This document shows positions 1 to 19,477 of a stretch of DNA of 20,000 bases, piece by piece. The stretch covers positions 77,701 to 97,700 of the forward strand of contig QPGO01000244.1 of the NCBI GenBank assembly GCA_008632985.1, in the 5' to 3' direction. Each line of letters begins with the position of its first letter. Positions within the stretch are counted from its first letter, which is position 1. The translations under genes and the position numbers were made by a program. The notes beneath the pieces are model-generated. The model was not told the DNA's origin. It was given only the letters and a program-made list of their open reading frames with translations, and ran no database searches. Source of the DNA: Psammoneis japonica. Lineage: Eukaryota.

Positions 1-2322
1 TTGGATTCACACATTGAGGTGTTTTCTAAATGCTGCAGAGCATGTTGATTGTGATTTTTAGATTGATTCAATGTTGCATTCACACATTGATGCGCTTGAT
101 TCACTGTGAGATAAATCTTTCTTCGCTGTTGTTAAATCGCAGCAATGCACGTGAATATGAAATTGACACGCAGCTGGGTCCAAAGCCCAGTTCTGTGTTT
201 GCGTGCAACCGTGGCGACCGGAAGTCGGGGTGGTGCATTGTCAACTTCTTAAATTGTGGGTGTCAGTCAATTCGGGGATCACCATGGCTCAGGTCAAAAG
301 TGTCATGGGCCCTAAAAAGTTTCTCCTGACCAAAAGCAGTTGAGCAGCATCGTCGTCCATGCATCTGCCGTGTCACAGCTTGAGCCTTGCTTCGATGACA
401 ACGTTGTGTCCAATGAACTGACAACATTGACGCAATGATGTGAGAAAAGTCGATGAACTGTCCACGCAACGATTCCTAAATGCCCTGAGTTGAGCAAAAA
501 TTTTTTCATGTTTTTTTTTAAGTCATGATCTGTCAATGGGAGTTGGCATCGAGGGCACATCAGGGTGCCCAGTTCATGCAAATTTCCAAGTTGAAGTCGC
601 TGAATGTCCTGAGTTGAGCAAAAAAATTTTCATGTTTTTTTGGAAGTCGTGATTTGTCAATGGGAGTTGGCATCGAGGGCATGTCTGCATGTGCCCAGTT
701 CACGCAAATTTGCAAGTTGAAGAAACCCCCCAGTCAAGTTCCAAGTCCAATGATGCCACTGGCAGCGCCTCAGAAGCTCCCAAGAAAGGCAACATCACCA
801 GGCTGAGCAATGCCCAGAGCATGATGACACCTCGGCTGTCAAGAGATCAACCACCAGATCCCCACCACCCGAGCGATCACGCCACATTGGCCTCTGAGAA
901 AAAAACAACATGAAAACAACTTGTGGGCCAAGAGTGCTGCACCCAAGCTCTCAAATGAAAGCAGTGCCCTGTCCACCGCCGTTGCCACCTTCGGCGCAAG
1001 GCCAAAAGAAAAAAAGATGAAAAGGCTGTGTGGAAAAGAAGAGCCAGAGACATGGGGTGCAAAAAGTTGAGCCCTGCTGTCGGACCACCTCATCATCTCG
1101 GATGCCCGCCTCCACCCCCCACCCTTGCTTGCACCCCAGACAGATGCGAAGCTTGCCCTCAGGGAAATCAATGATGTGAAAGCAGCCCACAATGGAAAAG
1201 GAGCTCACTCAGCATGTGCGCATCGAAGTCAGTCCATCGCAGCTGCTCATGTCAAGCAGGCACATTTGCAAGTTGAGCGACAGACATGGCATCAATGAAA
1301 GAAAGTTCCTCCACAGGTTTCATTGCAACAACAACGCGGTTGCCAGGTGCCCCCACAATCGCCGCCAAGCTCCGATCTGCAGGAGCTGCAAGCACACACT
1401 TTTGCAGACCAAGCTCGCAAACAACACGCTGCCGCGGCACAAAAGCAGTGGCCTCAAAGAAGTGGCGCTGCATGTGTGTGCTTGTCTCTGGGCTTTTGGG
1501 GCGGCCCTTCCTGGTTCCTGTTTTTTTCTTTCATGTCGGCACTTCCCCCTGAACAAGCCAAGAAGACAACAATGGTGGAGCAGCGCAACAACTGTCGGGC
1601 ATTTGTGCGGGGGCTGAGGGTCACCCAACAAAGAGATTCTTGGGTTTGATTTGGAGCTCCTCTTTCAGATGTTTTGCATCCCGAGTTGGAGCCCCTTGCC
1701 TGGGCCAGGGCTGGGGTTCGCAAGGCACTGTTGATGCGCTGCTGCTGTGCGCTTGATGCACAAGCTTTGTTTTTTGGCACTTGCACAGACTCTGTGACTC
1801 ATTGTCGATGAGTGCTGCTGACACACTGCCAAACAGAAGAGCGTTGGTGATCGAGTGTGGAGATGAGAACATTCGCCCCACAGCGGAAGGGCAGTTTTCA
1901 ATTTTTGCAGCTGCGCGAGTGTTTGGAGCGTCGCGGCAAAGGCGGCAATTTGTGGGTGTGTGCCAGATGATGCTGATCCCACTGGAGTTGGAACAGCAGA
2001 CTGTTGCGAGCAGCCACTTGACAAATGGAAAACACCGGGTGCAAGTGAGTGTCTGTGCAGGTGGCGGTGGTGATGCAAGGCACACCAGAGCTGTCTGCCA
2101 GAGCTGAGCTCATGCCACCAGCAGGGCACACGAGGCCACATGAGCAAATTCGCCGGGTGTTTCGGCAGGGTCAGCTGACAGCAGTCGTGTGTCATCTGCG
2201 TTGACAGTGACCGCAAATCAAGAATTTCTGCTCACAAGCTGCTCAAATCTTGCCTGATGTTCACAGCTGGCCCCAACCCTCTGACCCTGACCCAATGACC
2301 CATGCAAGACGCGTTCCAGGTC
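1..2322. other. TpA-depleted domain of decayed repeat/pseudogene sequence
   Basis: About 9 TA in 1-520 and none seen in 521-2322. ORFs in all frames are rich in Cys/His/Trp and almost lack Tyr. No recognisable intact protein. Confidence 0.8.
437..722 (+). repeat. Dispersed repeat family: 28-bp block (437-464) plus two tandem ~120-bp units (478-596, 602-722)
   Basis: The units share gagttgagcaaaaa...gtcaatgggagttggcatcgagggca...caagttgaag. The same block order recurs at 5327-5499. Confidence 0.85.
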
Positions 2323-2829
2323 TAGGTGGGACCTCGCACTACTGAACTGTGACATCGATAGTTTTTTGAATCGCGTCGTATGTCGCGCACGTACATTTCT
2401 ACGTGATTTTGGCGAAATTTTGTATGATTTTATAGTACAATTATCAGGCTATCCCTTGAACAACTTTTTATATTTTTTTCTTCTACGCCATTCTCGAGTG
2501 TCTTAAGAATGGCGTAGGGCAGGCGTATTATCCAAAACTTCGAGTACGAACAGGGACGGATAGATGTACTACAAACTTGGCCGTTTTTTTTATGTCGAAG
2601 ATAAATATATGCATTAACCACAGTACGAACTACAGAGCTCGCACGTAGAATTCTACGGGGCAAATGTCACAAACCAGGCCTGCGGGGAGCATTGACCACT
2701 TGTCTTTCTTTGTGGGTGTGGGTGTATGTGTGCCGTTGCATGCTGTATTGCCTGTACGTACGTAGGGCCCTACCGCCGGGGCCGGTATTGTGGCGGCTGA
2801 GTGGCGTGGCCACCGCACCGGTGACGCGG

Positions 2830-4666
2830 ATGACCGTTATATTTGATGTCTCATGCCATTTTTGGGGCTGTAGCGAGCACAGCGGTTTCAACGGTTTCAA
2901 CGCGCATTTCAGGGCGAACGGTGAAATGTGCTCATTACCCATTTCTCCTTCCCTCGCCGATTCATTTCATTGCACGTCGCACGTCTTCAAGTCTATTACG
3001 ATGGCACTCTTTGTCAATTGAAGATGTAACTCTACAGCATTATTGACACCCCTTTGTAACATACCATTTAGAGAAGACAGGTAAGTCAAAATTTGCCAAC
3101 TGTGTTAGTCAGCAGTTCCTTCTTCCCCGCCAACATCCCCACCCGACTCCTCAACATTGTTCTACAGTACAGTCTCTGTCTCGACAGCGAGGTTTGCCCT
3201 TTGCCGCCTTTTTGGCTTCCTTCCTCTCCATCGTCTCGCCTGAAAAATTCGTCTATCGATTATCTTTTATCTTGTCCCGAACGGAAGCTGATTCTGTCAC
3301 GACATTCCGGAAGAGCTCGGGGAGGAATTGGAGAATTCCAAGACGATTGCCATATTGCGTCGGCTCAGGAAATCAGCAGCTAGGCCTATTATCAGGAACG
3401 ATCGCACCGCGATCATCAAGCCAAGTTTGACGCTGAGATTGATGGACTTGGTGCATGATGTAGACCATTTAAGTGGCAAGAATAACGATTGGTTTCTCGA
3501 CAGGCTGAGCTGGAAGCCGAGCTGCACGATAATGACATGGAAGTTGCCCCGTTCAAGACGATTTGATGTTGACAGTCATGCGAGTGTTTTTCCGTGGCAG
3601 GACTGCACACGATAAAAAGCGATCATGGCATCATGTCTCTTTCAGCAGATGCTGCTGTACTTTGGTGGACCGTCTGCTTGCAAAGCAACGCTTGGCTGAG
3701 ACCCTCGCTCTCAGCCGTCAGCGACCACTGTTTGCTCTAGGAAATGTGCTTGGGAGCACTGCATGGCTACTTTAGGCACACAACTTGTTACTCTGGGCAT
3801 TGTGTAAGATTCAACTATAGCACTTGAGATGATTACCCACTACTGCACGTCGGTTGGTTCATGGCCTGCGTCGAATGGTAGGATTTGACCTAGTTTAGAA
3901 ATGATGGACCTTCCTAGCAAGAAATTTCCATTGCATCAACCTGTTAGAAATGCCCACACTATCAACATCTTAAATGTATAAGGCCAATCAAGTGAACTTA
4001 CCTGGATCATCGACCTGCTGTACAGTATCAGCCCGACGGTGCATTTCTCATCGACTAACAGAGAACAGCGGCTTGAGCTGATTTGAGCTCGGATGATCCC
4101 GACAGAATGCTTCCAATGCCATCACACCAAGTCTTTTAATAAGAATACTAAGACTGCGCTGCATTGTAGAGTCCATACTGGACTTTTCATCCACCCCTAC
4201 AGTCAAGCTCATTCGTCCCGTCATCGTGGCATGAATCTCGTCGTCAGGAGTGGCACGAATGATCGTGTGTTTTTCTCTCTAGGCTTCTACAGATGGAACA
4301 ATTTTGCACAGCATGATAGTAAGATACAATAGAGAGCTGAAACATGGGAGATACTGGGAGAGGCAAGTCAAAATACCATCAACAAGGCCACCGTCAGATC
4401 CATGACAACAAATCGACGAAAACTCGTTCCGACAATCCAGTACAAACCCCACGTAGAAATCTACGATGATTTCCACGAAAAAAGGCGCAACCGAGATTCC
4501 GTCCGCCATTGTCAACCATATCGATAACGACGACATCAAAACATCTTACACTAAGGGAAAAACGACATATGACCTCAATAATACCATGAACGACAACATA
4601 TCTCATTTTTTCCTCAGTGTCGGCAGTTTACATGAAGTAGAACCGGCTGTTGTCGATTCATGGTGA
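2830..4666 (+). pseudogene. Possible fragmented or multi-exon gene of unknown function
   Basis: Normal TA content. ATG at 2830 lies ~60 bp after a TAGGGCCCTAC motif. Candidate introns at 2921-2990 (GT..AG) and from 3081 (AG|GTAAGT). Several short protein-like + frames (e.g. RQAELEAELHDNDME), but no continuous ORF or family recognised. Confidence 0.2.
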
Positions 4667-5326
4667 CTGCGGCTCTGAGCAACAAATTTTTTTTGTGCGG
4701 TGACAGTGTGCTTTTTTCAAAACTTTGAAGATTAAAAAGTTCCTAATTCCAGTTTGATTTGGCACACCCGAACATTTTTTTCACAGACAAACACGCTCAC
4801 CGTTCTCGCGCGGAAACCGCTGTGGCGAGGTGCACGGACACTCTTTTTTTTCCAATTTATCGCCATAATAGCGCATCGCACAAACTCACTTATTGTTCGA
4901 CATGTTTTCCCCAATATGACTTTTTCGTGTAGAATTCACGATAAATTATCTTTGTATATAACTGAATACATTTTTGAACATGCCACGCCGGCAATCCCAA
5001 TTTTTCAGAACTTTCGAGCTCTCCTGAAAAACCGTGCCACGTGCCCGTCGTAGGGAATTTATCGATTTTTTAGGATGTCCCCACAACCTCTCATGTCCTC
5101 AATGACAATTCCAAGAATCCGAAGAATTCATCTGCACTGAACAACCCACACCCTTTCAAAATCCAAGGGACACACTTTCAAATTCAGACGGACAACCCGA
5201 CTGCCCGACTGCCCCACTGCCGGACCGACACGAAAAAGTCTGCAATCACCAACCACTGAGTGGTCAATGAAAGTCCCACCCAGGACTGGAACCCGTCGCA
5301 AGAAAAGTCGATGAGCTGTCTCCAAC

Positions 5327-5499
5327 GATGTGAGAAAAGTCGATGAACTGTCCAAGCAAGGACCCCAAATTTTTTTTTGCTTCAAATGCCAAATGTCCCA
5401 AGTTGAGCAAAATTTTTCCATGGGTTTTGTTGCAAGTCGTGGTTTGTCAATGGGATTTGGCATTGAGGGCATGTCTGCACGTTCGCGCAAACTTCCAAG
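5327..5499 (+). repeat. Third copy of the 437-722 repeat family (possible transposon subterminal sequence)
   Basis: gatgtgagaaaagtcgatgaactgtcca is identical to 437-464, and 5391-5499 aligns with 478-596 and 602-722. Confidence 0.8.
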
Positions 5500-5739
5500 G
5501 TGTCAGTCAACATTGCTGACCTCTGCATGTGTGCTCTTTTTTCCTCATGTGCAAACCTGTGTGAGCCAATTGCCAGAAAGAACAACACATCTTGGTGCAC
5601 CCAGCCCAAAGCCTGTCTCAAGCTGCACCTTGTTTTGTCTCTCAGCTCTTCATTGTCTGGGTGGATCTCTCACACGCGGCATCACCTTGTGCCAAATCTT
5701 TGACCTCGCTGGCTTCAGAGACCCTTGCACACACTGCCC

Positions 5740-6223
5740 CAGCTTGGCAATGGCATCCTGACATTCTGCCAGCTCGGCAATGGCATCTGGCAATCCGACA
5801 TGGTGTTCTCGAGAGTCCGAACATGGTCTGCCAGTTTGGCGATGGCATCCTGACATTCTGCCAGCTTGGCAATGGCATCCTGATGATCCAACATGGTGTT
5901 CTTGAGAGTCCAAACTTGGTCTGCCAGCTTGGCAATGGCACCCTGACAATCCGACACGGTGTTCTCAAGAGTCTGAAAGTGGTGTGCCAGCTCAGCAACA
6001 GCATCCTGATGTTCCACCAGCTCGGCAATGGCATCCTGACGTTCTGCCATGGTGTTCTTGAGAGTCTGAAAGCAGTTTGCTGGCTCAGCAATGGCATCCT
6101 GACATTCCACCAGCTTGGCAATGGCACCCTGACATTCTGCCATGGTGTTCTTGAGAGTTCAAATGTGGTTTGCCAGCTTGGCAATGGCATCCTGACATTT
6201 CACCAGCCCGGCAACAGCACCCT
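5740..6223 (-). repeat. Coding-type minisatellite of mixed 30-bp and 63-bp units; relic of a coiled-coil protein
   Basis: Units start at 5740, 5770, 5832, 5862, 5925, 5988, 6018, 6081, 6111, 6174 and 6204 with core cagcttggcaatggcatcctga. The minus strand reads (AExQDAIAEL / ADxVRTLENTM)n. One 1-bp deletion near 5788. Confidence 0.85.
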
Positions 6224-6654
6224 CAACAGTTTCGTTGGATTTCTTGAGTTCGCCAGTGGATGCCGCCAAGCAGCGCTGCCTCCTTTCCCTTGCACGCTGA
6301 TTTTCTGATGAATTGCAAGGGGAGTGCTGGTGTGCTTGATGATGCCAATGCGATGCCTGCTGCCACGTTGTTGCTTTCCCCAGTGAGCGAAAGGCAACAA
6401 CAACACACAGTCATCACAACGGCTGCAACGCGGTCAGTGGCAAGGTGGCGCTCATGCTCAAATCTTGCCTGGTGTTGTTTGTGGCCGGCCTGTGATTGTT
6501 CCAGTGGCTGAGCCTCCTCCATGTGGCACCGCAACAACCAAGCACTGCACACGACTGCTCAAGCATGACTGTGCAGCATGAGCCGTGTTTTCAGTCTGTC
6601 ATGGTTGCCTGTGTTGGCTTGCCTCCATCACATCACATGATGACAGCCGAGTGC

Positions 6655-7276
6655 TGCACGTCTTGTGCTCTCATTTTGTTGTTGCTGCCAGACCTGCATG
6701 CTGCTTGCAAGCAGCCATGGCTGCAAACAACAACAGTGGCTGCAGGATGCACAGGTGGAATGAAGGTGATGATGCCGGGGAACTTTTGGGCCATGTGCAC
6801 AACCCTCGCAGCCCTGACATGATGTTCGCTCATGGAAATTGTCTCGCCAGAACACGTGGACAGAGCCCAGAATCTGAGCGGAAACTGGAGGTTGGTGTGC
6901 ACCACCATGTTCCACAAACACTGCAAGAGCATTGTGAAGCCAATCTTCCAGGCCGCGCCTCCTCCTGTGCCCACCGCCCACCCTCCCTCCTCTTGCAAAC
7001 CCACCTCGCAACACCACTGGGGTCATCCTCCACCTGGGCATCACTGTCCTCAATGCTCAAGGTGGTCAAGTTGAGCAATGCCAGCATTTTGCTTCATCAG
7101 CTCCACACAGGTTCTGACCCTCTTTTGTTGTTTTCTCTTGGGCCCAGATTTGGCTGGCATTGTCACAGCCACAGCACAAGGCCAGGTGACAGCCAGCTGG
7201 CAGCATCCTCTGAGATTTTTTGTTGTGGGACAATGCACGTCTTGTGCTCTCATTTTGCCATTGCTTCCAGACCTGC
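6655..7276 (+). repeat. 43-bp direct repeat pair (6655-6697 and 7234-7276)
   Basis: tgcacgtcttgtgctctcattttg...ccagacctgc occurs twice with about 4 mismatches. Confidence 0.75.
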
Positions 7277-8067
7277 TGAGAAACGTGCCTGATGCTGCCA
7301 CCCTTTCTAAGAAATGCAATTTGGCTGCTGCAGCCCACTCAGTGAACAGACACATGTGTGCGCGGCTGGCTGTTTCAATGTTGGATGCCCTGCCACTGCT
7401 CCATGTTGAAGCACATTGCTGGACACTTCCATGGCAACAAGCACTGGGGCATCACCTGCAAGAAACCTGGCCAAGACAACCCCAAGTTGCCCGCCTTCCC
7501 CAAAATGATGATCCCTTCCAGCTTTGCCAGCTGTTTTGGTTGGGTTGGCCAGTCGTGTGTCGTCTGCATCAACCATGATGTAAAATCAAGAGTTCAGACC
7601 AAAGTTGTTGCAGTGGCCTTGAGTGTGTTGGAAAGCACCTCAGATTTCTTTGAGAAGCAAGCCAGTGCCAATGATGCTGACCACACCAAAGTCCAGAGAC
7701 TTGGTGCAGAGCCAAAGCAATCTGGTGCAGCATCACATTCTCCAGCTGCACCCGCATGGAGAGGTTCTGATCCACCAAAGCACACAAGGGACACACCATT
7801 GTTGCTGGAAGCATTGATGGATGGATTGCCCAGCCCAAGTCAGAGAAAATGGTGGCTTTTCCTCCTCCAAGCCAGAGTGAGAATGGACTCTCCCAAGAAT
7901 GGAAAGCCTGATCTGCCAAAGCATGCAAGGATCATGCCATTGAAACCATCACTGCATGGATCACTCAAGTTGGAGATCCTTCCAGCCAGAGTGAGCATGG
8001 GCTCTCTGGTCCTGATGATTCTGAGAATGGCAGTGGCAAGATGCCAGCCAAAGATCCGGGTCAGAAA

Positions 8068-8212
8068 CCCAAGGTGAATGTCCAATTTTCCAAGCGGTGT
8101 TTTTGCAGCAGTGTTGTCAAATGCATGATGAAGAACACAGAAACTGGATCACCCATGTTTGGCATTGAATGTGAAGATGGCAACACTGAAGACATCAATC
8201 AAGAGGAGTGTG
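8068..8212 (+). pseudogene. Relic of a Tudor-like domain
   Basis: KVNVQFSKRCFCSSVVKC...PMFGIECEDGNTEDINQEE resembles the G-x-V-x-x-Y...(Y/F)-x-I-x-YEDGDxED pattern once C->Y and N->D are restored. Recognised by eye only. Confidence 0.45.
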
Positions 8213-9554
8213 CATCTAAACACTCAACAAGGAGCTTCCTTCAAAAGCTCATTTCACTCAAAATGTCAACATCCACAACTTGCCATTGGCCACTGAAAAT
8301 GTTGCTGAGACACAAACCACAGATTCTGTGACTGGCAAACCACCCACAAAACAATTGGAAGAGCCACGCGGCAATGAGATCTTTTGACACTTCAGAAGCA
8401 GCTTCGCTGTCTGAATTCTAAAAAAACATCCAAATTCCAAACCCCTCCCCACTGATTTCATTCACATCCATTTGCCATGACATGGCTGGCCACACATGGC
8501 ACAAATTTTAAGTTCATCATCCCCATTTTCACTGGAACAAAGCGCACACTGCCAGCCTTGCCACTTGGGGCAATGTGCTGACAATGGGGCTCACCACAAG
8601 TGTCCTGCAGAGATCTTCCTTGAAGTCACGCTGGGGGTGAGCCTGGGGTGAGCAGTCATTGGCTCCCCTGGCTGCAGCAACTGCTGTGAGAGTCTCACAG
8701 CTCCAGCTGAATGTTGCAGCATGGGTGATGCTTGGGTGTGGTGAAGGGTTTGAAGAAATGGGCACCACTTCAGCAACAGAGACTGCACCTCCATCCACAT
8801 GCAATTGAGGTGTCTCACTTTATGGCATGACATCTCAATGGCACTTTCACCAACTTTCACCCATTTTCCCATTTCTTGCTTTGTTCTTCTTGGTGACAAT
8901 TTTGCAATGCACACGCTGTTTTCTTCAAAGTCAGCACACGTTCAAGCTGAGATTGCAAATTTCACATTCAACACACACAACACCCAGTTGCCATTTCGGA
9001 AACTCTGGATCAACAGGAATGTTGCTGTTGTTTGGCAATGGCTCTGACAGCACACCAAACATCACATGCTTTGTAATGGGTTTGCATTGTTGCCACCCAG
9101 CAGTGCAGGATGCTTGGCTTCAGCACTGTGTCACACTCACAGTGGCTGTCTCAATCTGGCCTGTGCTTCTGAGAGGCAAGAAGAAAAGCAAAATGAGTGA
9201 GTGAGCAAGATTTCACTCTTTGGATGTGACCACAAACAATGCCAGAAGGTTGGACAGATGATGGGCAAACAAGAGCACCAAGTCAGCCTGAGTGAGAAGG
9301 CCCCATTTGTGGTCACCAGAGAGGATCTTCTTGCAGACCTCGCTGTTGTTTTTTGGCACTTGAAAGTTGGGCACTCTGTGGCCTGCAATGACGGGCACTC
9401 AAGAGATGCCCACAGCTCTGCAAAATGGAAGCACAGCAATGGAGGCAGAGCTCAGAGAAATGTGCAGGTCAGCCATGTGAAGTTGCCAACATGCAGACAC
9501 ACATGGGACCCTTTTCCTTTGCCCTTTGAACCAGGAGCTGCTTTTCAGTGCCTT

Positions 9555-10690
9555 TCACACATCACTTGGGTGAGAGTCAGAAAGAGCTGCCAGGTTCTGC
9601 AGCTTCTTGGACACCCAGATGATGGGACATCTGACATGACAAATGACATGTCCGATGCATGGCTTGATGGACGTTGGGTCCTGCCTGTCTTCAGCACAGA
9701 AGAGTCCCACAAAATCAGCACCAACACAGCTGTCCAGATGACGGTCAGTGGTGGGTGCAAGGATGAGCCCCTTGTTGGTGGCACCCTTCAAGTGACAAAG
9801 AGTGTGTTTGATGGCAACAGTGTGCAAGGCTTTGGGAGCACAGGAGAACTGCACAATTTGATGGACAGTGGACAGGCAGTGTTTGGGTGGCTGTCAGATG
9901 CTGGGTGCATCAGCGTGCCGACCACGGGGCAACAGTTGCAGGGTTCATCCAATGGCAGGCCTTCAGCAAAGTTGCCACCAACAGGTGTGGGAAGTGCAGG
10001 AGCAGGAGCTCCATTGCAGTTTTCCACATCTTGGTGGCACGCAGAACTTTCTCAGTTGGGCCAGGCCAGGTCAAGAAGGAAGAGCCAGCCACTCTTGAGC
10101 TTCTGGATCTTGATGCCCAAAAAGTCACCAACTTTGTGCCTTCACCACACAGGTCAAAGACATGGCATTGCTCGCCATCAGAGATGCCCAATTTGGCAAT
10201 GTGTCTCTGTTTGCTTCAAGTTCTTGAGCAGGTGCACCGGCAAACACGGCATCATCAACGTGCACCACACATGGCACACCCTTCTTTTGAAATGAAGACA
10301 AGAGTCAACAGCAGACTGGGACCAATCTCTTTCGAGTGATCCATCATGCAGCTTTCCACAGAAACACTTGGGAGGCTGATCATGAAGGCCACACAGGCCT
10401 TTCAACAGTTTCAGCACCAAATCGGCGACCGATCTTCTTGGCTGAGAACCCTTGGAAAGCTCCACACAGACTTTGTCCTTGGTGTCAGCTTGGTGCTGGG
10501 GATGCAACCATTTGCACAGATGACACAAAAGGAGGGGGGTGCCTCTCTCGAGGTTGTGCAACGCAGTGCAGAGGGTGACAACCGCACAGCAGGGGACAAT
10601 GAGACATGCCAAAAATGCAAATTGTGAGATGCTCTCTCACTTGTGCAAGAGTGACAATTTCGACCAACGGTCGCCAACGTCACTCCGACC
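9555..10690 (-). mobile_element. Degenerate Ty1/copia LTR-retrotransposon pol fragment (RT plus N-terminal RNase H), CoDi-like
   Basis: Motifs occur in copia order across frameshifts: LKLLKGLCGL (=LxKSLYGL), QSAVDSCLH, VHVDD at 10251-10265 (=YVDD), NCCPVVGTLMHPASDSHPNTAC (=YRSVVGMLMYLAxNSRPDIAY), KHTLCHLKG (=KRIxRYLKG), CVGADFVGL (=YVDADFAGL), GHVI..CPIIWVSK.LQ..AALS. No LTRs found. Confidence 0.9.
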
Positions 10691-10849
10691 ACTGTGCTGT
10701 TGCCGCAAGACTCGACGGACGTTTTTGCGGAAGCAAATCTGTCGTGACAACATGTCGATGACCCAAGGAGTCCACCGCCATCCGTGAACCAGCAGACTGG
10801 TGACTAGTGGCAGCTTGGCTCTTGTGGCTTGGGGCCGGCGCCGGCATCT

Positions 10850-10884
10850 CTCTACTCTCTGCTGCTCAGTGGTAGAGAGTAGAG
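10850..10884. repeat. Inverted repeat (hairpin) at the edge of the TA-depleted domain
   Basis: ctctactctct-gctgct-c-agtggt-agagagtagag has 11-bp perfect arms, extending to 17 bp if three TG are read as TA. Confidence 0.7.
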
Positions 10885-11480
10885 GTAGGCTAAATGATGC
10901 AGTGCGGGGTTGCGGGGGCTCCTCAGTTTATTTTGCTTGGAGCACATGGGTTATGAGCTCCTACCACTAAACGTATGTGCCACGTGCCACATGTAGGATG
11001 TACTGTAGGACGACGTACGTACCATGTACTGCAGTTCTACATACAGCACTCAACTGCGTAAAACTGGGCCCCCGCTTATTTTCAATTTGTCGGGGGGATG
11101 CGCGGAAACATAAGCAGGGTTATATCGAAAAATTCTCCCCCCCTGCTGTATCGTCAAGCCTAGGGCCCTACCGGTAGAGAGCACCGAGACGACAAAACAA
11201 GATGTGAATCCATGAACGTCGTTCATTTGTCAATCACAAACATTTATCTTGTAGCCGTACCAAAATGGCGTGATTCTTCACGCATGGACCCCCGTCTCAT
11301 GGTGTTGTTGCGAATGAAAGGTAAAACGTTCTCGTATTCAACGTAGAATTCTACTGTAGTCGGAAGGCGCTCCCTAACCGACGTGCAAGCTAGAGTTGTC
11401 ATTTGTGTCAAATGTTGATTTTAGCTCTTTTAAAAATCATTATAGCCAATGTTTTCAAAAATGGCACGTGCATCTTATTC

Positions 11481-12350
11481 CTATTCATCAGCCACAGAAC
11501 GAGGAGATACCTTCCACGACCCTGCTCGTTCGACCAATCTTCTTGAGGATTTCGAGCTTGAAGCTGTGTGTGCCGCATGGCAATTGGATCCAGGTTGCCC
11601 GGGTCTAGCAGTCTGTAACCGCTTTTGGACAAACAGGAATTCTGGAGAAGCTAATTGAATGCCGGAAGCATCCGATGCCACGCCCAGAAAGTATCCTTTG
11701 ACAGAATTGGACAGTTTATCGCTTGACTCAAGCGCATTCGATACGCACGCCAAAGCAACAATGGAGGAACTGATGGCAACGAGATGTTTGTCACTCAATG
11801 CCAATTCTATCTGATCCTCTGAGCACTTGAAGATGCTCTCACGCACTTGCTCTGTCATGGAGGATGACACCATCATGGTCAAATAGTTTCGGACAAATGC
11901 TGCTGGTGTTGGTGGATTCAATCGAAAACCCAGAGCTGAAATGATGACAACTTCCATATCAGTAATTTGCTTCTCGGTGTATGCACCTCTTGAGAGTCCA
12001 GCGACAGTCTTTGGGTCAATGGCCATGGGCTCGTGCATTTTGATGGCAGTGTAGAAACACGTCATGGCAGCAAGCTGATAAGTCACTCGCTGTTTGCACA
12101 TTTCTTGACCAGAAGGCGTAAGAAGAAAACGATCGAGATAAGATGTCGCTATTGACACGGTTTCTCGGTTGAACTTGCAAAAATCAGCGATTTGGTAAAA
12201 CCACTTGATAAGTTTCGCCCTGGAGCTAGCGTCGACTTGAGCAAATCGTGATGGCGGGTTCTCTGGAAGATCACAATGGCATCGATATGCCGTTTGCTCT
12301 TGAGTCCGCATGGCTCGGACTGTAAAGACAATGTCGTCGATATCCATCAT
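11481..12350 (-). CDS. Cyclin, diatom-specific type (Cyclin_N + Cyclin_C), ~289 aa
   Basis: Cyclin box RAKLIKWFYQIADFCKFNRETVSIATSYLDRF...YQLAAMTCFYTAIKMHE...MEVVIISALGFRLNPPT, with C-terminal SPRSV. Start placed at MMDIDD (12350) because the upstream 61 codons look non-coding. Confidence 0.93.
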   Translation of the reverse strand: MMDIDDIVFTVRAMRTQEQTAYRCHCDLPENPPSRFAQVDASSRAKLIKWFYQIADFCKFNRETVSIATSYLDRFLLTPSGQEMCKQRVTYQLAAMTCFYTAIKMHEPMAIDPKTVAGLSRGAYTEKQITDMEVVIISALGFRLNPPTPAAFVRNYLTMMVSSSMTEQVRESIFKCSEDQIELALSDKHLVAISSSIVALACVSNALESSDKLSNSVKGYFLGVASDASGIQLASPEFLFVQKRLQTARPGQPGSNCHAAHTASSSKSSRRLVERAGSWKVSPRSVADE

Positions 12351-13031
12351 ATTGAAAAGAAAGTGAACGATTGTGATTGAAAGTGGCTGTGTCGTAATTT
12401 GGGCAAAGGAAGTTTTTATGAGGTTGTGTCGTCGTTTGGTGCAAGCATTTCTCGAAGTCGCGGTTCTGTGGCGCAAGCAGTTTTCTACCCGCGACTCAAT
12501 ATCAAAATCGCGACTCGACTCGATCCGCGCCATCTAGTACATGATCCATGTAGAATGTACAGTACGTACGACCCCTACATGCTGTAGGTTGACATCTTCG
12601 CTCAGAGTACATACAGTGCTGAGACTGTGAACACTTGGGCATGTCTACCGGTAGAAGGTACCGCAGTACCGTATTATGTACGAAGTACCTTACTTCTTGT
12701 ACTAAAGCCTAACCAACCTTACTGCGTACGGTACATAGGGCCCTACAGCTTTCGGTGTCGTTTGCTCTTGTTTTTGGTCGCGGCGTGACATGCCTTCCCG
12801 CGCGACTGCGTGCGCCCTGCATGCATTCTCGCCGCAAGGCGAAGAAGGATGCCACACATTTTTTCTGAAAATCCAAATTCCAAATTCTGTTGAAGCTTGG
12901 CCAACGTACGGATGACGTCGGGGGTCTGAGGTCGGTGCGGTGTCAACTCTAGGGCCCTACGGTACTGTAGCGCAGCGCACACAAAAAGTCAGTGACACTA
13001 ACTGACAACTGACAACTGTGACGATTTGACG
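12351..13031. promoter_or_regulatory. Divergent intergenic/promoter region between cyclin and ACS
   Basis: The two genes are head-to-head. The region contains 12 GTAC in 12537-12734 and TAGGGCCCTAC at 12736 and 12950. Confidence 0.6.
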
Positions 13032-15144
13032 ATGAAGTTTTCGTCGAGTGCGCTGCTGTTGCTCTTGTGCAAGTCAGCAGTGATCCAGTCCTTTGCTCCG
13101 CCTCAGCCAACGTTTGGTCGTGGTAGACTTGTTCTTCATGCCGCCACAAACGGTGAAACTGCGGTCAAGCAAGAAGCATCAAAAACAGAGGAAGAAGAGC
13201 CTCACTTTGCCGAGAAGCAGTACGATGCTGTAACCAATTCGGCCTTTGAAAAATACAAGAAAGAATATGAGGAATCGATCAAGGATCCCTCTAAGTTTTG
13301 GTCTCAGCAAGCTGAAGATATGTTGGACTGGCAACAGCCTTTTCACGCAGCTTTGCAGGGATCACTTGAAGACGGATCTGTCACGTGGTTTGCTGGAGGA
13401 AAGCTCAATGTCTGTTACAATGCCATTGATCGTCACGTGGAAACTGGAAATGACGTTGCTCTGGTTTGGGAAGGGGATGAGCCAAGCGACACCAAGTCGT
13501 ACACTTATAAGGAACTCTTGGCAAAGACGTCTCAAATTGCCAACGCACTAAAATCGCAAGGTGTCAGGCGAGGAGATGTGGTCACGATTTACATGCCAAT
13601 GATACCTGAGTTAGCCATGACGATGCTAGCATGTGCAAGAATCGGTGCTGTTCACTCTGTTGTGTTTGCAGGATTCTCGTCCGAAGCCTTGGCGCAGCGC
13701 ATTGCCGCGGCACAGTCAAAATTCGTGGTGACAGCGGATGTCGGAAAACGTGGGGGTAAGACTATCGCGCTGAAAGATATTGTGAATGACAGTTTAGATC
13801 TCCAAGACTGCGACGCTGTTGTGGAAAAGGTGTTTGTCTTCGAACGCTTTCATGATCCAGAATCGACAGAGGCGACTTTTGAAATGAAAGACAAGGATGT
13901 CCGAATGGATCCACTCGTCAGAAGACAACGGCCGTACTGCGTTCCAGAAACAATGGACGCCGAAGACGACTTGTTTATTCTTTACACTTCCGGCAGTACG
14001 GGCATGCCAAAGGGCTTGGTCCACACGACCGGTGGGTATGCTCTCTATGCTGCATTTACCACAAAGAATACCTTTAACTTGGCGAAAGATGATCTGTTTG
14101 CATGTGTGGCCGATTGTGGTTGGATTACAGGACACACCTACGTTGTCTATGGTGCGCTTTTGAACGGCGGCACTACCTTTATGTTTGAGTCAACACCTGT
14201 CTATCCGATCCTGGCAGGTATTGGGACATGGTGGAGCGACACGGGATCACATTATCTACACCGCACCTACAGCGATTCGTCTTTTGATGCGGTATGAGAT
14301 GAATATCCGAAAAAATATGATTTATCGAGTCTCAAGGTTTTAGGAAGTGTCGGAGAGCCTATCAACCCAGAAGCATGGCGCTGGTACTTTGAGACAATTG
14401 GTCGCTCTCAATGTAGCGTGGTTGATACCTATTGGCAAACGGAGACTGGCGGCCATATAATTACAAACTTTCCCGGAGTAACGCCCATGAAACCGGGAAG
14501 TTGTACATTGCCGTCATATGGAATCGATGCGGTAGTGTTGGACCCTCTTGATGGACACGTGTTGGAGGGCAGTCCGCAGGAGGGTGTCTTGGCAATTCGT
14601 CAGCCATGGCCGGGTATGGCCCGAACGTGTCTAGGCGATCACGAGCGGTACATGCAGGTGTACACAAAGCCTTATCCAGGCTTCTACTTTACAGGCGACT
14701 CCGTGATTCGAGATCAAGATGGATACCATTTTATTACCGGGCGTGTCGATGATGTATGAACGTGAGCGGTCATCGGATTGGCACCGCCGAAGTAGAAAGC
14801 GCCTCGTCGGTCACTCAGGAGTGGCGCAAGCAGCTGTCGTTGGACAGCCCCATCCTATCAAGGGGCAATCGATTGTTGCCTTTGTCATGTTGGATGTTAA
14901 ACATGAGGAGAGTGACTCTCTTGTGAAGGAACTGCGCAATCAAGTACGGACCGACATTGGGCCGTTCGCATCTCCTGACGTCATTTGTGTTGCTCCTTCA
15001 CTCCCAATGACCCGTAGTGGAAAAATTATGAGACGTATCCTTCGCAAAATTGTTGCCGGGGAAACGGATACATTAGGTGATACGAGTACTCTTGCGGATC
15101 CATCAATTGTCGACGTTCTCATTGACAAAGTTGAAAGCTGGTAG
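13032..15144 (+). CDS. ACS: Acetyl-CoA synthetase (AMP-forming), predicted plastid-targeted; five 1-bp frameshifts in this sequence
   Basis: Motifs [92 protein letters not shown] and [11 protein letters not shown]. The N-terminus is a signal peptide followed by S-FAP. Frame breaks at about 14206, 14255, 14296, 14755 and 14803. Confidence 0.93.
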
Positions 15145-16153: not shown

Positions 16154-16944
16154 GATATAGAAGTTGCGTTGGTTAGCGGCGCCTTTAGCCTTTGCTAGTT
16201 AGTATAAAAATGGGTCGAGTGTGGTGTAGTGTGGTGTTTGCGGTTGTGTGGCTTTTGAGCTTGGCGGTGAAATGCAAGAAGGGTGAAGCGGTCAAAACTT
16301 GAAAAGATTTGACTGAATTCGTTTTTCGCTTTTCTATTTTTTGGAGTCGTTTCCAGCCATATCTGTTGAAAATTACCGAAAATTCCAAAACATGTCACTG
16401 CACGAGTGTTTTCTTCGCCCTTTCGCTCAGAAGCAAGTCGAAAATAAGAAAATACTTTCGATTTAGTCACGCGTTTCTGGCGCATAAAAGCACTGCGGCT
16501 CAGCCCGATGTCGGAGGTCGGCGGTCGCTCTTGTTTGTTGCATCGTTGCTGTTGTTGATCTTCGTCGTCGAAACGGGCCCTCAGAGACAGGATGGGTGGA
16601 GGCATCCAGGCTTGGCCTCTGCGCAGAGCAATGGCGCAATTCCTGCACATCTTTGTCCGTTTCAAGGGTTTCAAAAGGCAAGACGGCGGAGGCCACACAC
16701 ACTTTTCGTTGTTGGGTGCACGTCCAGTCTACATCCATGGGTCATTCGACAGTGATGCGGTTGACCAAATTGTGTGTTGCGCAGAACGACAAAAGAGCAT
16801 GGGAAGGGGTTCCAGCTTGTTGAAATGGTTTTAGTGGCTCTCCACGCTTTGTGAAAAAGGTCTCATCCAGTTCAGTGGCGTGCTTTGCTCTCTGCTGCGG
16901 TGCACTTTTTTTCGCAAAGTGCCGTCTCCATCGCGACAAATAAT

Positions 16945-17290
16945 GTAGCTCGCTCTACTAGTAGGCTCGGCTACTCTAGAGAGCTAGAGTGGCTATGGCT
17001 CTACAGCAGCTACTCTAGAGTCTACCGTTGGCTACCGTAGCTGCTTAGAGAGCTGGCCACAAGAGCTGGCTCTGCTCTAGAGCCAAGCCACTGGAGCTAG
17101 CTCTGCTCTAGAGCTAAGCTGCTAGAGCCAGCTCTGCTCTGGAGCTAAGCTGCTAGAGCTGGCTCTGCTCTAGAGCTAAGCCACTAGAGCTAGCTCTACT
17201 CTCTAGCTAGAGAGCACCGGTAGAGTAGAGCATAGCTACTCTCTCTAGAGCTGAGAGTTAGAGAGAGGGCCCTAAGCTAGCTAGCTCGAG
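16945..17290. repeat. CTAG/AGAG-rich low-complexity tract containing a 31-bp tandem array (17062-17202, 4.5 units)
   Basis: Units at 17062, 17093, 17124, 17155 and 17186. Inferred consensus agagctagctctactctagagctaagctact, with internal palindromes agagctagctct and ctctagag. Confidence 0.9.
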
Positions 17291-17593: not shown

Positions 17594-19477
17594 ATGGCAT
17601 CGGGAGGAACGCATCGCAAAGCGCGAAAAGCGGGTGGAGTGAACGTTGAGGCGGTACATCCTTTCGAACCGAAGCCGTCCAATCCTTCGTCTCTCCCAAG
17701 GAAAATGATGTCTTGTGTGGAAGAGGCGTGCATGCCAGCCAGCATGGCGGCAATGTCTACATTTGGCAGCTGGTGAAGCAACGACAAGAGGAATACACAT
17801 TGCACGCACCCAAAGCTCGCAAACAAGAGATTTCTCGTGAAATCGTACAGCAGATACACAGTCTCTCTCCTCCAGGAAGATTCATGAGAAAGAATGAGAG
17901 GCTAAATGTTTGGATGGAGGTGTCTGACGAGGAGGCGCGAAAGAAAGTCAGTCAATGCCTTCGTGAGAAGAAAGGGAGCGAGCCGCCCAATTTTTCGTAT
18001 CTCCCAAGGAAGAATGATGTCTTGAGTGGAAGAGGCTCGGGTCCCAACCAGCATGACGGCAATGTCTACCTTCGGCAGCTGGTGAAGCAGCGACAAGAGG
18101 AATACACATTCCACGCATCCAAAGCCCGCAAACAAGAGATTTCTCGTGAAATCGTACAGCAGATACACAGTCTCTCTCCTCCAGGAAGATTCATGAGAAA
18201 GAATGAGAGGCTGAATCTTTGGATGGAGGTGTCTCATGAGGAGGCGCGAAAGAAAGTCAGTCAATGCCTTCGTGAGAAGAAAGAGGGCAAAAGCAAATGT
18301 TCGCAGGATCTTTCTTTTAACGACTCGGCAGAATTACTCCAGTTTCAACCGAGCACACAAGCTGTTCGCTCGCTCATTGACCATCGTCCGTCGCAATCGC
18401 CCCTATGCTGGAGCTACAACGCAAGCTCGACCATCTCTTCGGCAAGAGAACCGACGCAGCAAGAAACACGCACAAGCTGAAGAGGTACCGACCCTGGCAA
18501 ATGAAGTAGAAGACCGTAAAACTCTTCCTGTCAAGAAAAGGAGGCCTACGCTACAAATGCCGGAAAATTGTGACATTATTGATGTTGACGCTGAGCCGGA
18601 AGCACCATGGCACGCTCACCTTTCACAATACCCTTGGTTGACAAAAACTGGCTCAGTCAATACCAACTAGAAGATGATAAAGAGGTTGGCGCCGACGAAC
18701 CGCATGCGCCATGGGACGCTCACCTTTCACAATACCCCATGGTTGACAAATATCGGGTTAGTCAATACCAATTAGGTGATGAAGAGGTTGACGCCGAGGA
18801 GCCGAAAGCACCATGGGACGCTCACCTTTCACAATACCCCATGGTTGACGAGAATTGGATCAGTAGATACAAACTGGGTGACAAAGAGGAGCTTGGTGCC
18901 AGGGAATGCTCCCGGTAAGTGCATCAATCATCCTTTGAATTTCAGCACATGTGGTTTTTCTTATTCGCTCATCATCCGCCCTCCTGGTGCAACGGTGAAC
19001 AGAACGATACTCGAAGAAGTCGAGCCCTTCATACCACGCCCGGAGTCTACCGCGTCAAAAACCCCGACCAGCATACTGAAACACTCGAGTAAACCTTGCC
19101 GTGAAGGCTTTAGCAAGACCGCTCCTAGCTCCTTCGAAAGCTTTGCATCTTCTGCAATGAATACTCCACCTAAATCCTTAGAGGAAGATCATCACGTAGG
19201 TCAGATCAAGACTGCGCCTTGGTCCGCCGAATCGTCGGTGCCCGATTCATCAGAAGATGCTACTCTAGCTGTAATGAGGAACACGAAGCACGATCGCGGT
19301 GAGAATCAGCTCAAGCCTGCTCCAAAACCTTTGGAAAGATTAGCATCTGATACATCATATACTTCGCTCGTCGTACTGACACACTCCAAGCAAGATCGTG
19401 CTGCTAATGAACGCAAGCTCGCTCCTAGTCCATTGGAAAGGTTGGCGTCCATTGCATCAATTACTCACGAGCCGTAG
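17594..19477 (+). CDS. Protein with two tandem DUF6824-type domains, three ~35-aa repeats and an S/P-rich tail; frameshifted in this sequence
   Basis: NDVL(C/S)GRG...HxGN...LV...Y...KQEISREIVQQI...PPGRF...W.EV..EEARKKVSQCLRE occurs twice. Frame breaks at about 17703, 18465 and 18633. Frame-restoring GT-AG intron at 18915-18992. The true 3' end may extend to ~19700 through another frameshift. Confidence 0.75.
17693..18281 (+). repeat. Intragenic near-identical tandem duplication, period ~309 bp
   Basis: 17693-17972 and 18001-18281 align with long identical stretches, each encoding one DUF6824-type domain. Confidence 0.92.
18583..18890 (+). repeat. Three ~102-105-bp coding repeats (EPxAPWDAHLSQYPMVDxxxxSQYQLGD)
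   Basis: ccatgg(g/c)acgctcacctttcacaataccc occurs three times (~18605, 18709, 18811). Confidence 0.9.

Follow-up and report, generated by a model that had tools for sequence, protein, structure and literature searches.

Organization of the locus

The window analysed here, a stretch of 20,000 nucleotides from the genome of the diatom Psammoneis japonica, contains two domains (together, the void) in which the dinucleotide 5'-TA-3' is absent or nearly so. Domain 2 (5072..10804), delimited by flanking TAs at 5071 on the left and 10805 on the right, retains 7 TAs where 342 are expected from base composition (observed/expected ratio, o/e, 0.02), in agreement with an earlier note that had counted about 7 in 5.7 kb (5073-10804). 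The survivors lie at 7308, 7581, 8217, 8419, 8509, 8821 and 9074; the sub-block 7308-9074 has 6-7 TAs and a CG o/e of 0.16, and the sub-blocks 5072-7307 (CG o/e 0.39) and 9075-10804 (CG o/e 0.29) have none. A second void, domain 1 (520..2322; 0 TA in 1803 bp, CG o/e 0.50), was absent from the earlier note, and a Pfam search of its open reading frames found no family. At a density of 43 TA per kb, that of the TA-normal parts of the window, the Poisson probabilities of TA-free runs of 1803, 2236 and 1730 bp are 2e-34, 2e-42 and 5e-33, respectively.

Three of the four domain edges are abrupt, as had been claimed for those of domain 2. The number of TAs per 250 bp on either side is 0 versus 23 at 2323, 15 versus 1 at 5072, and 0 versus 19 at 10805, where a TA-normal flank with a cyclin gene on the minus strand (10805..12533; Cyclin_N, E = 1.7e-18) forms the right boundary. 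The edge at 519 is gradual, unlike the other three, and is preceded by a partly TA-depleted zone (1..519; TA o/e 0.20, CG o/e 0.80) in which 8 of the 9 TAs are of the TAA/TTA type.

Between the two domains lies a high-copy element with terminal inverted repeats (TIRs; 2308..5297, plus strand), most of which makes up a TA-normal block (2323..5071; 134 TA, o/e 0.66; CG o/e 1.05). As read by eye, its TIRs extend over about 2308-2332 and 5273-5297 (20-nt match, 3 mismatches, 0 expected) and are flanked by GCAA at 2304-2307 and 5298-5301, which may be a 4-bp target duplication. In a k-mer assembly built from public reads (run X1), which may share its sample with the genome assembly, summed depth reaches 59010 at 2002-2668 and 8931 at 4670-5336, compared with about 55 over genes, and joints of 2672 to 5270 and of 2866 to 4819 correspond to shorter copies of the element elsewhere. 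The right arm of the element (5072..5297) is devoid of TA over 225 bp (P = 6e-5 for a run of that length at normal density), and the right TIR reads CA at a step where the left TIR reads TA. The element is thus spared over 2323-5071 though its last 225 bp are TA-free, a pattern that fits neither a whole-domain rule nor an every-repeat rule.

A dispersed repeat of about 150 bp, also reported in the earlier note, is present as tandem copies A and B astride the left edge (433..719, plus strand) and as copy C within domain 2 (5323..5502, plus strand). Copy A retains TA at 477 and 519; at the step at 477, copies B and C read TG and CA, respectively. Base identity of copy C with A and B is 65-79%, and rises to about 92% when the sequences are coded as purines and pyrimidines, so that the differences between copies are nearly all transitions. 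Further to the right is a minisatellite (5739..6223; periods of 30, 63 and 93 bp) whose units vary as CG, TG or CA at identical steps. The coiled-coil character once ascribed to it has only sub-threshold Pfam matches behind it, and a proposed Tudor-like fragment is not supported (15 bits, below the cut-off of 27; E = 0.018). TA loss therefore reaches beyond retroelements, since the TIR end, the minisatellite and the dispersed repeat are TA-free too.

A Ty1/copia reverse transcriptase and RNase H relic (9558..10480, minus strand), already suspected within the void, was identified by BLASTP, by tblastn and with a profile of seven references. BLASTP aligns it with residues 1090-1176 of a complete copia polyprotein (L069; E = 2e-7), directly after the RVT_2 domain of that protein (804-1047). 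In tblastn, all seven copia references match the minus strand at 9444-9887, and the profile matches are colinear and in minus frames only. The 5' side of the relic is truncated near 10805, its frame changes three times, and several stops (TGA) interrupt it. Pfam found nothing in its pieces, and the window as a whole gave no match to gag or integrase; the relic is not an intact polyprotein with gag, protease, integrase and two LTRs.

Direction and extent of TA loss

Over 5073-10804, the o/e is 0.29 for CG, 1.77 for CA and 1.82 for TG. Relative to the TA-normal parts of the window, the TA-free parts have a deficit of 272 TA and 312 CG and a surplus of 270 CA and 280 TG, with each of the 12 remaining dinucleotides shifted within ±65 and AA, AT and TT unchanged. 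The dinucleotide books thus balance as TA + CG to CA + TG. CA and TG are themselves balanced (869:787), with no strand-block structure (chi2 = 46.3, df 37, p = 0.14). Among the surviving TAs, 15 of 16 are of the TAA/TTA type (Fisher p = 2e-6 against TA-normal DNA, where 180 of 514 are).

The copia relic gives the direction of the change within a single element. At its seven consensus Tyr columns, which include the Tyr of the column of the reverse transcriptase catalytic motif, the relic reads CAC, CAT, CAC, TGT, TGT, TGT and CTT, that is, three His, three Cys and one Leu. His or Cys occurs in 6 of these 7 columns compared with 16 of 155 others (Fisher p = 2e-5), a test on seven columns in which the intact copia references come from other organisms and not from the relic's own family. 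Those intact elements have Tyr (TAY) at the six columns where the relic has His or Cys. The occurrence of His and Cys at Tyr columns on the same strand of the same element indicates that CA and TG both arose from ancestral TA, and that both DNA strands were hit. A similar direction is hinted at elsewhere in the genome when the TA-normal repeat 3091-4557 is compared with its paralogues in X1: of five A>G or T>C changes among the best-supported 40 of 793 difference rows, four lie in a TA step (15.5% by chance, P = 0.0025).

Cytosine decay accompanies this loss. The CG o/e is 0.16-0.50 across the TA-free domains, and CpG depletion with a gain of TpG and CpA is the pattern left by decay of methylated CpG; judged from composition, the DNA of the void, having lost much of its CpG, is probably methylated and silent. 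The loss of TA is more complete than that of CpG, and is full even where CpG is only mildly reduced; the last 250 bp to the left of 10805 have 16 CG and 0 TA. CpG decay was also considered as the cause of the void. It runs in the same domains, yet is incapable of removing TA.

The X1 assembly reproduces the void. Its contigs there (0.9-1.1 kb long, at a depth of about 50) are also TA-free, with about 1% of sites differing from the window. They span 3961 bp of void with 38 differences. None of the 18 differences listed for the void involves TA, and 11 of the 18 are exchanges between CpG and TpG or CpA; in one contig (record 2, over 1212-2303), none of 9 differences creates a TA. Another contig starts at 10800, near the right edge. 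To the extent that the accuracy of the X1 reads can be judged from contig depth and length, accurate reads thus show no TA at the sites of the void. The description of this DNA as repetitive holds for pockets with a depth of 208-290, but most of the void, at 50-100 compared with 55-60 over genes, is about single-copy in X1, in which copies diverged by more than 15% would escape. Duplication as a trigger is a candidate only.

In summary, TA has become CA and TG on both strands, within the confines of domains, to saturation and in dependence on flanking bases. A regional conversion of A:T to G:C at TpA, as the earlier note had proposed, is supported by the dinucleotide balance, by the Tyr columns and by repeat copies in which one step reads TA, TG or CA. 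It withstands the refuting conditions set in that note, to the extent that these could be applied.

Proposed mechanism and alternatives

We consider it probable, with some reserve, that a real, active and domain-limited conversion of TA to CA or TG operates on genomic DNA in this diatom. The evidence comes from one locus in one genome, and a literature search found no described precedent for TA-erasing hypermutation. The void would be the footprint of DNA-level hypermutation at a single dinucleotide in old transposon-derived DNA, in which nearly every 5'-TA-3' step was converted to CA or TG via one transition. As to mechanism, we tentatively put forward, at well below even chances, an enzyme that would deaminate adenine to hypoxanthine at TpA in silenced chromatin or repeats. 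Since TA is self-complementary, the site is lost from both strands once the A of one has changed, which leads to CA and TG in a 1:1 ratio and makes no CG. Such conversion would saturate, outrun CpG decay and reach TAA/TTA last, and would halt within a few bases of the gene junction and of the younger repeat insertion. That repeats or heterochromatin are the target is suggested by the co-located CpG decay and the transposon origin of the DNA. To our knowledge, no natural enzyme deaminates adenine in double-stranded genomic DNA.

The next candidate after an adenine deaminase, though an unlikely one, is a modified thymine at TpA (the product of a TET/JBP dioxygenase, of the 5-hydroxymethyluracil, 5hmU, or base-J type) in silenced transposons, which would mispair with G or be misrepaired, giving T to C. 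Mutation would then be the by-product of an epigenetic mark rather than the work of a dedicated mutator. Like a deaminase, such a base would leave CA on one strand and TG on the other, with an identical mutual exclusion, and it is consistent with the co-located CpG decay; we know of no such base in diatoms, however, and the loss of 98-100% of sites at a pace beyond that of CpG decay is much for a side effect. Dinoflagellate genomes show enrichment of 5hmU on repeats, and the base silences transposons there (PMC11572971); older work cited in the same source describes TA and TC as its preferred contexts in Crypthecodinium. Against this, a strong sequence preference was not recovered in Breviolum (PMC11071213), and TC is not comparably depleted here (o/e 0.97 in the void compared with 1.10 in TA-normal DNA). 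The dinoflagellate base resembles the present case in being directed at thymine and placed on repeats, with the TA/TC preference of older reports, but it is an epigenetic mark in another lineage, and a mutational footprint is not among the features described in the pertinent sections of PMC11572971 and PMC11071213; moreover, TC is unaffected here.

Other explanations are much less probable. A-to-I editing enzymes typically prefer a 5' U, and ADAR- or ADAT-like editing beside U in retrotransposon RNA, followed by reverse transcription into the genome, would suit a void whose right edge coincides with the truncation of a copia relic. Such editing predicts changes in the sense strand only, whereas the sense strand of the relic has three TAY to CAY and three TAY to TGY changes, the balance of CA and TG holds throughout without blocks, and the TIR of a DNA transposon, the minisatellite and the dispersed repeat are TA-free as well; we regard this explanation as highly improbable. 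We give equally little credence to an artefact, in which a modified base at TpA is misread and TAs present in the cell are missing from the assembly. Long-read base callers do err systematically at modified motifs, and X1 may be the very sample behind the assembly. Yet the void recurs in X1, whose contigs depart from the window at about 1% of sites, as expected of a separate consensus, which makes a base-calling artefact unlikely; misreading at a palindromic step, affecting both strands, would yield mixed calls and some CG, which is instead depleted; and the frameshifts and stops of the relic fit an old, mutated copy. Error-prone repair synthesis of the Pol-eta type (WA to WG), repeated in heterochromatin and raised as a candidate in the earlier note, has a spectrum that includes A to G at TA. 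It is disfavoured, to the point of being scarcely credible, because AA, the other WA step, is untouched (o/e 1.16 in the void compared with 1.11 in TA-normal DNA), and sharp edges and near-total conversion are unlike stochastic repair error. Least probable of all is a native or selected TA poverty, for example through avoidance of insertion by a TA-targeting transposon or of nuclease cutting: the losses are destructive, with conserved Tyr, that of the catalytic motif among them, changed to His or Cys and the reading frame broken, unrelated sequences are alike TA-free up to abrupt edges, and sister copies keep TA.

Relation to known hypermutation systems

APOBEC3 enzymes convert C to U on cDNA (PMC4866542). 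ADAR enzymes convert A to I on RNA. Hypermutation by APOBEC3 or ADAR shares with the present case clustered transitions, a neighbour-base preference and the inactivation of mobile elements, but acts on a single strand of a replication intermediate, whereas here both strands are affected equally and non-retroelement sequences are included. TadA and ADAT2-3, together with the adenine base editors derived from them, deaminate adenine after U or T with A to G as the outcome; their natural substrates are RNA loops, and we know of no natural activity on chromosomal double-stranded DNA.

The closest parallels are with RIP of Neurospora and other Pezizomycotina, which likewise acts on genomic DNA, at one dinucleotide, by transitions only and on both strands, and which can saturate, has sharp borders, and affects transposon-derived DNA with signatures of cytosine methylation alongside. 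In diatoms, LTR retrotransposons of Phaeodactylum are CpG-methylated (PMC2806351). RIP converts CpA to TpA and thereby enriches TA (PMC2621366), the opposite direction to that seen here, where TA is destroyed and CA and TG are made. RIP is, moreover, fungal, whereas the present host is a diatom. RIP is confined to duplicated sequence and relies on a cytosine methyltransferase of the RID/DIM-2 type in the premeiotic phase; X1 puts most of the void here at about single-copy depth, old copies more than 15% diverged escaping the count. An enzymatic process with its own choice of target may serve in genome defence in this diatom, and it looks like a functional mirror image of fungal RIP.

TA loss and its borders

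Positions 5073 to 10804 contain 7 TA dinucleotides where 342 are predicted from base composition, and the void described in the earlier note is thus borne out, with abrupt edges on both sides (flanking TAs at 5071 on the left and 10805 on the right). Other steps in this stretch have observed/expected ratios (o/e) of 0.29 for CG, 1.77 for CA and 1.82 for TG. A further void at 520-2322 has zero TA, and positions 1-519 are half depleted. Elsewhere in the window TA occurs at 43 per kb, in agreement with the ordinary TA content claimed for the neighbouring DNA, and at this density each of the three longest TA-free runs has P<=1e-33. Only the edge at 519 is gradual; the other three are abrupt, with TA counts over the 250 bp on either side of 0 vs 23, 15 vs 1 and 0 vs 19. 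A TA-less stretch of 245 bp (16485-16730), inside otherwise TA-normal DNA with normal CpG, may be accidental, a result of coding bias, or a small patch that was converted.

Relative to the TA-normal parts of the same window, the TA-free parts show a deficit of 272 TA and 312 CG and a surplus of 270 CA and 280 TG, while the remaining twelve dinucleotides are at most 65 off expectation and the four pyrimidine-purine steps sum to 1836 (1870 expected). The composition is thus what single transitions of TA and of CG to CA or TG would leave. AA, AT and TT are unaltered, which makes the loss a property of the TA step and not of A or T generally. CA and TG are present in similar numbers over all TA-free DNA (869 vs 787), with no strand-biased blocks (chi2 46.3, 37 df, p 0.14).

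These features are unlikely to be produced by base-calling errors. Of the sampled words of the TA-free domain, 65% are present in X1, a public sequencing run whose contig depth and length suggest accurate reads, and which may be the assembly's own sample. Four X1 contigs of 0.9-1.1 kb and word depth of about 50 lie on the voids (1212-2303, 6314-7342, 8111-9055 and 9125-10019), and they show the void too, so that this second dataset, with read accuracy judged from these contigs, also lacks TA at the sites concerned. They differ from the window by 38 letters in 3961 bp (about 1%), compared to 7 differences in about 5.1 kb of neighbouring genes (three contigs). The X1 consensus is therefore distinct from that of the window, and the void is nonetheless common to both, which argues against an artefact, as does the depletion of CG, since miscalls of a palindromic step should yield some CG. 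None of the 18 void differences listed creates a TA, and 11 are exchanges between CpG and TpG or CpA; the unlisted differences on the four pieces number at most 27, where normal density would give about 170 TAs. No RNA run is listed among those with the sequence; two further runs, X2 and X3, which are from the same sample and whose kind of data is a guess, hardly cover the TA-free parts and carry no weight here.

The void is poor in CpG as well (o/e 0.16-0.50), and its polymorphism consists mainly of CpG transitions; both features fit the cytosine methylation of transposons reported for another diatom (PMC2806351). Throughout the void, CpG has been lost less completely than TA: 0 TA accompany a CG o/e of 0.50 at 520-2322 and of 0.29 at 9075-10804, and the final 250 bp to the left of the 10805 edge retain 16 CpG and 0 TA. 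No spontaneous mutation is known to be faster than the decay of methylated CpG, and TA loss that outruns it suggests an active process and not a passive bias. CpG loss without TA loss is possible in this DNA, as in a stretch of high TA (o/e 1.2) and low CpG (o/e 0.44) with five copies of a 31-bp tandem repeat (17049-17209). Of the 16 TAs that remain, 9 belong to the half-depleted zone and 7 to 7308-9074. TAA or TTA accounts for 15 of them, a context found for 180 of the 514 TAs of normal DNA (Fisher p 2e-6); the process hence reads one flanking base pair or more, and TAA is the last to go.

Contents of the voids and the copia relic

The contents of the void are unrelated to each other, and comprise a copia relic, a minisatellite of 30/63/93 bp, a dispersed repeat, the right end of a DNA-type element with terminal inverted repeats (TIR), and several kb without any recognised feature. 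The earlier note had described such a mixture of relics, and its copia, minisatellite and dispersed repeat stand; its Tudor-like fragment was rejected, as the Pfam match (E 0.018) is below the cut-off. Pfam searches with 20 ORFs, 82 ORFs and 13 stop-free pieces of the minus strand gave no transposon domain for the void, and no Rfam family was found anywhere in the window. In a self-comparison in purine/pyrimidine coding, the two TA-free domains share small repeats, without larger-scale homology. Destruction of TAA and TAG stops leads to long false ORFs that fill the mutated DNA, and 40 stop-to-stop ORFs of at least 100 aa are found in 312-10803, a stretch comprising the two voids and the TA-normal element between them.

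The right edge at 10805 is the truncation point of the copia relic, whose integrase and gag are missing; here the flank of a cyclin gene (11481-12533, minus strand) begins, and an X1 contig starts at 10800. The right half of the window further encodes an acetyl-CoA synthetase (13002-14759), a prefoldin subunit and a DUF6824 protein. Closest relatives of the acetyl-CoA synthetase are diatom proteins of 64-71% identity, e.g. from Grammatophora, with none near-identical, and the eukaryotic source is accordingly treated as a diatom. A single in-frame stop (14295-14297) separates the synthetase into two ORFs that share a frame and leave about 39 profile positions uncovered, and probably marks a short intron. 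In the DUF6824 gene region (17650-18889), an internal 309-bp tandem duplication with 92% identity occupies 17673-18283, and 2.9 copies of a 102-bp repeat come after it (18593-18889).

On the minus strand at about 10480-9558, the sequence looks by eye like a frameshifted copia reverse transcriptase and RNase H. References were obtained from a collection of prokaryote genomes, in which a short RNase H motif in back-translation matched 38 loci, 7 of them with long copia ORFs (L043, L050, L051, L053, L060, L067 and L069). Pfam assigned RVT_2, at E 1e-71 to 1e-83, to the six of these seven put to it; one reference, L069, comprises a complete gag-integrase-RT polyprotein. The contigs concerned are filed as bacterial isolates or MAGs, and the copia ORFs presumably represent eukaryotic contamination of those assemblies. 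A 112-residue ORF of the relic (9558-9893, minus) matches residues 1090-1176 of L069, directly after RVT_2 (E 2e-7), and in tblastn 9444-9887 is matched by all seven references at E 1e-3 or better. A profile of the seven matches minus-strand frames only and in colinear order, at profile positions 461-524 (10477-10283), 531-555 (about 10271-10197) and 652-740 (9869-9576, 34 bits).

At the seven columns with consensus Tyr, the relic has CAC, CAT and CAC (His), TGT three times (Cys) and CTT (Leu). His or Cys thus stands in 6 of 7 Tyr columns, but in only 16 of the other 155 (Fisher p 2e-5, with references from other organisms), and the Tyr of the RT catalytic motif is among those altered. Judged from these codons, the relic shows that its ancestor had TA and lost it through transitions, and the presence of both CA and TG outcomes on one strand of a single element indicates that both DNA strands were targeted.

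Other searches with the relic gave little. Two word-based protein searches with the RNase H piece returned 29 and 3 candidates, none of which scored, and a PDB sequence search gave a single chance match (E 0.53). In the protein Atlas, one query led to unnamed clusters at 0.94, of which one includes a diatom record, while RVT_2 came up at just 0.84, for 12% of members; this is no more than a lead, and a second query returned nothing. The single locus from a metagenome scan, L001, was rejected as a chance match on a GC-rich bacterial contig. Motif scans of IMG/VR gave 1, 29 and 0 loci, none with copia; these loci have 16 ORFs of at least 150 aa, and the 8 put to Pfam were phage portal proteins, Pol III, chaperonin and RVT_1. 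A plus-strand ORF of 364 aa (9201-10292), longer than 99% of shuffles, was rejected as a gene because it is antisense to the relic; its one match among 1.84 billion representatives (E 6.6e-4) resembles another antisense ORF.

Repeat copies and the TIR element

Three copies of a dispersed repeat of about 150 bp, A and B (433-719) and C (5323-5502), share a step that reads TA in A, at the void edge, TG in B and CA in C. Base identity among the copies is 65-79%, compared to about 92% in purine/pyrimidine coding, so that nearly all differences are transitions. Conversion of TA to TG or CA, which the earlier note proposed, is indicated alike by the dinucleotide balance, the Tyr codons of the relic and the repeat copies.

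Between the two voids lies the TIR element (2308-5297), with a possible 4-bp target duplication, GCAA, noted by eye; at one step its left TIR has TA and its right TIR CA. Its family is very abundant in X1, with summed depths of 59010 over 2002-2668 and 8931 over 4670-5336 compared to about 55 over genes, and joints in X1 from 2672 to 5270 and from 2866 to 4819 correspond to shorter or deletion-derivative copies elsewhere. Pfam detected no transposase domain in the element. TA and CpG are both normal over 2323-5071, and the element looks like a younger insertion into previously mutated DNA. Its final 225 bp (5072-5297) are TA-free (P 6e-5), which places the void edge within one element; possible explanations are that TA loss spread in from the flank, that an old and a young copy underwent conversion over this tract, or that the arm is natively TA-poor. 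Comparison with X1 paralogues, covering the best-supported 40 of 793 difference rows, lists 19 differences for the TA-normal repeat at 3091-4557, five of them A>G or T>C, and four of these five fall in a TA step (15.5% by chance, P 0.0025). A 31-letter replacement reported in X1 at 2754-2818, examined by eye, likewise looks like a copy whose two TAs changed to CA and TG. These paralogues hint at TA conversion elsewhere in the genome.

Mechanism, known systems and implications

At this one locus, a saturating, TA-specific transition with a flanking-base preference has affected both strands of genomic DNA, and conversion is confined to transposon-derived, CpG-decayed blocks. We infer that an enzyme carries it out and that silenced chromatin or repeats are its target. 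In chemical terms the simplest route, to which we give appreciable but minority credence, would be deamination of the adenine at TpA to hypoxanthine, which pairs with C and give TG on the struck strand and CA on the opposite one. As the first hit abolishes the palindromic site, CA and TG would arise 1:1 and new CG would be absent. Our proposal for diatoms, or at least this lineage, is a chromatin- or repeat-guided adenine deaminase acting on TpA in double-stranded DNA, clearing silenced transposons of every TA and taking TAB before TAA; as a whole it is tentative and rather doubtful.

Next in rank is a TpA-directed modification of thymine that mispairs. In dinoflagellates, 5hmU marks and silences transposons, and older work describes its preference for TA and TC, according to the accessible portions of PMC11572971 and PMC11071213; TC, however, shows no comparable loss in the void. 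Editing of RNA followed by retrotransposition is contradicted by the hits on both strands of the copia relic and by the TA-free state of non-retro sequences. Pol-eta-type mutagenesis, whose WA to WG preference had made it a candidate in the earlier note, fails on the intact AA of the void, and a natively TA-poor composition is contradicted by the destructive codon changes in the relic.

The closest known system is fungal RIP, which has in common with the diatom void a dinucleotide-specific point hypermutation of genomic mobile DNA, on both strands and with sharp borders. The chemistry is opposite, as RIP creates TA and the diatom process removes it; the hosts are fungi and a diatom, respectively, and a duplication trigger, a feature of RIP, is no more than a possibility for the diatom process. 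To our knowledge, only fungi (RIP) direct point hypermutation at transposons in genomic DNA, and solely as cytosine-to-thymine change. In the main texts of the literature searched, which included subscription journals in part, we found neither TA erasure nor A-to-G genome defence in diatoms or elsewhere, nor RIP-like mutation in diatoms. The accessible portions of PMC2806351 and PMC12718438 do not mention hypermutation, dinucleotides or TpA.

If true, the finding points to adenine deamination in chromosomal DNA or to mutagenic, TpA-directed base modification, and we know of neither activity in nature; a DNA adenine deaminase, if proven, would be categorically new. For annotation, gene callers would be misled by ORF inflation in TA-free DNA, and the loss of TA conceals transposon relics from Pfam; TA o/e near 0 is also a simple mark that could map silenced DNA in diatom genomes. 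As a mirror image of RIP, the process would be the first case in nature of A-to-G hypermutation of DNA for eukaryotic genome defence, with engineered adenine base editors as its artificial counterpart, and would represent a second solution, chemically opposite to RIP, in unrelated and ecologically dominant algae.
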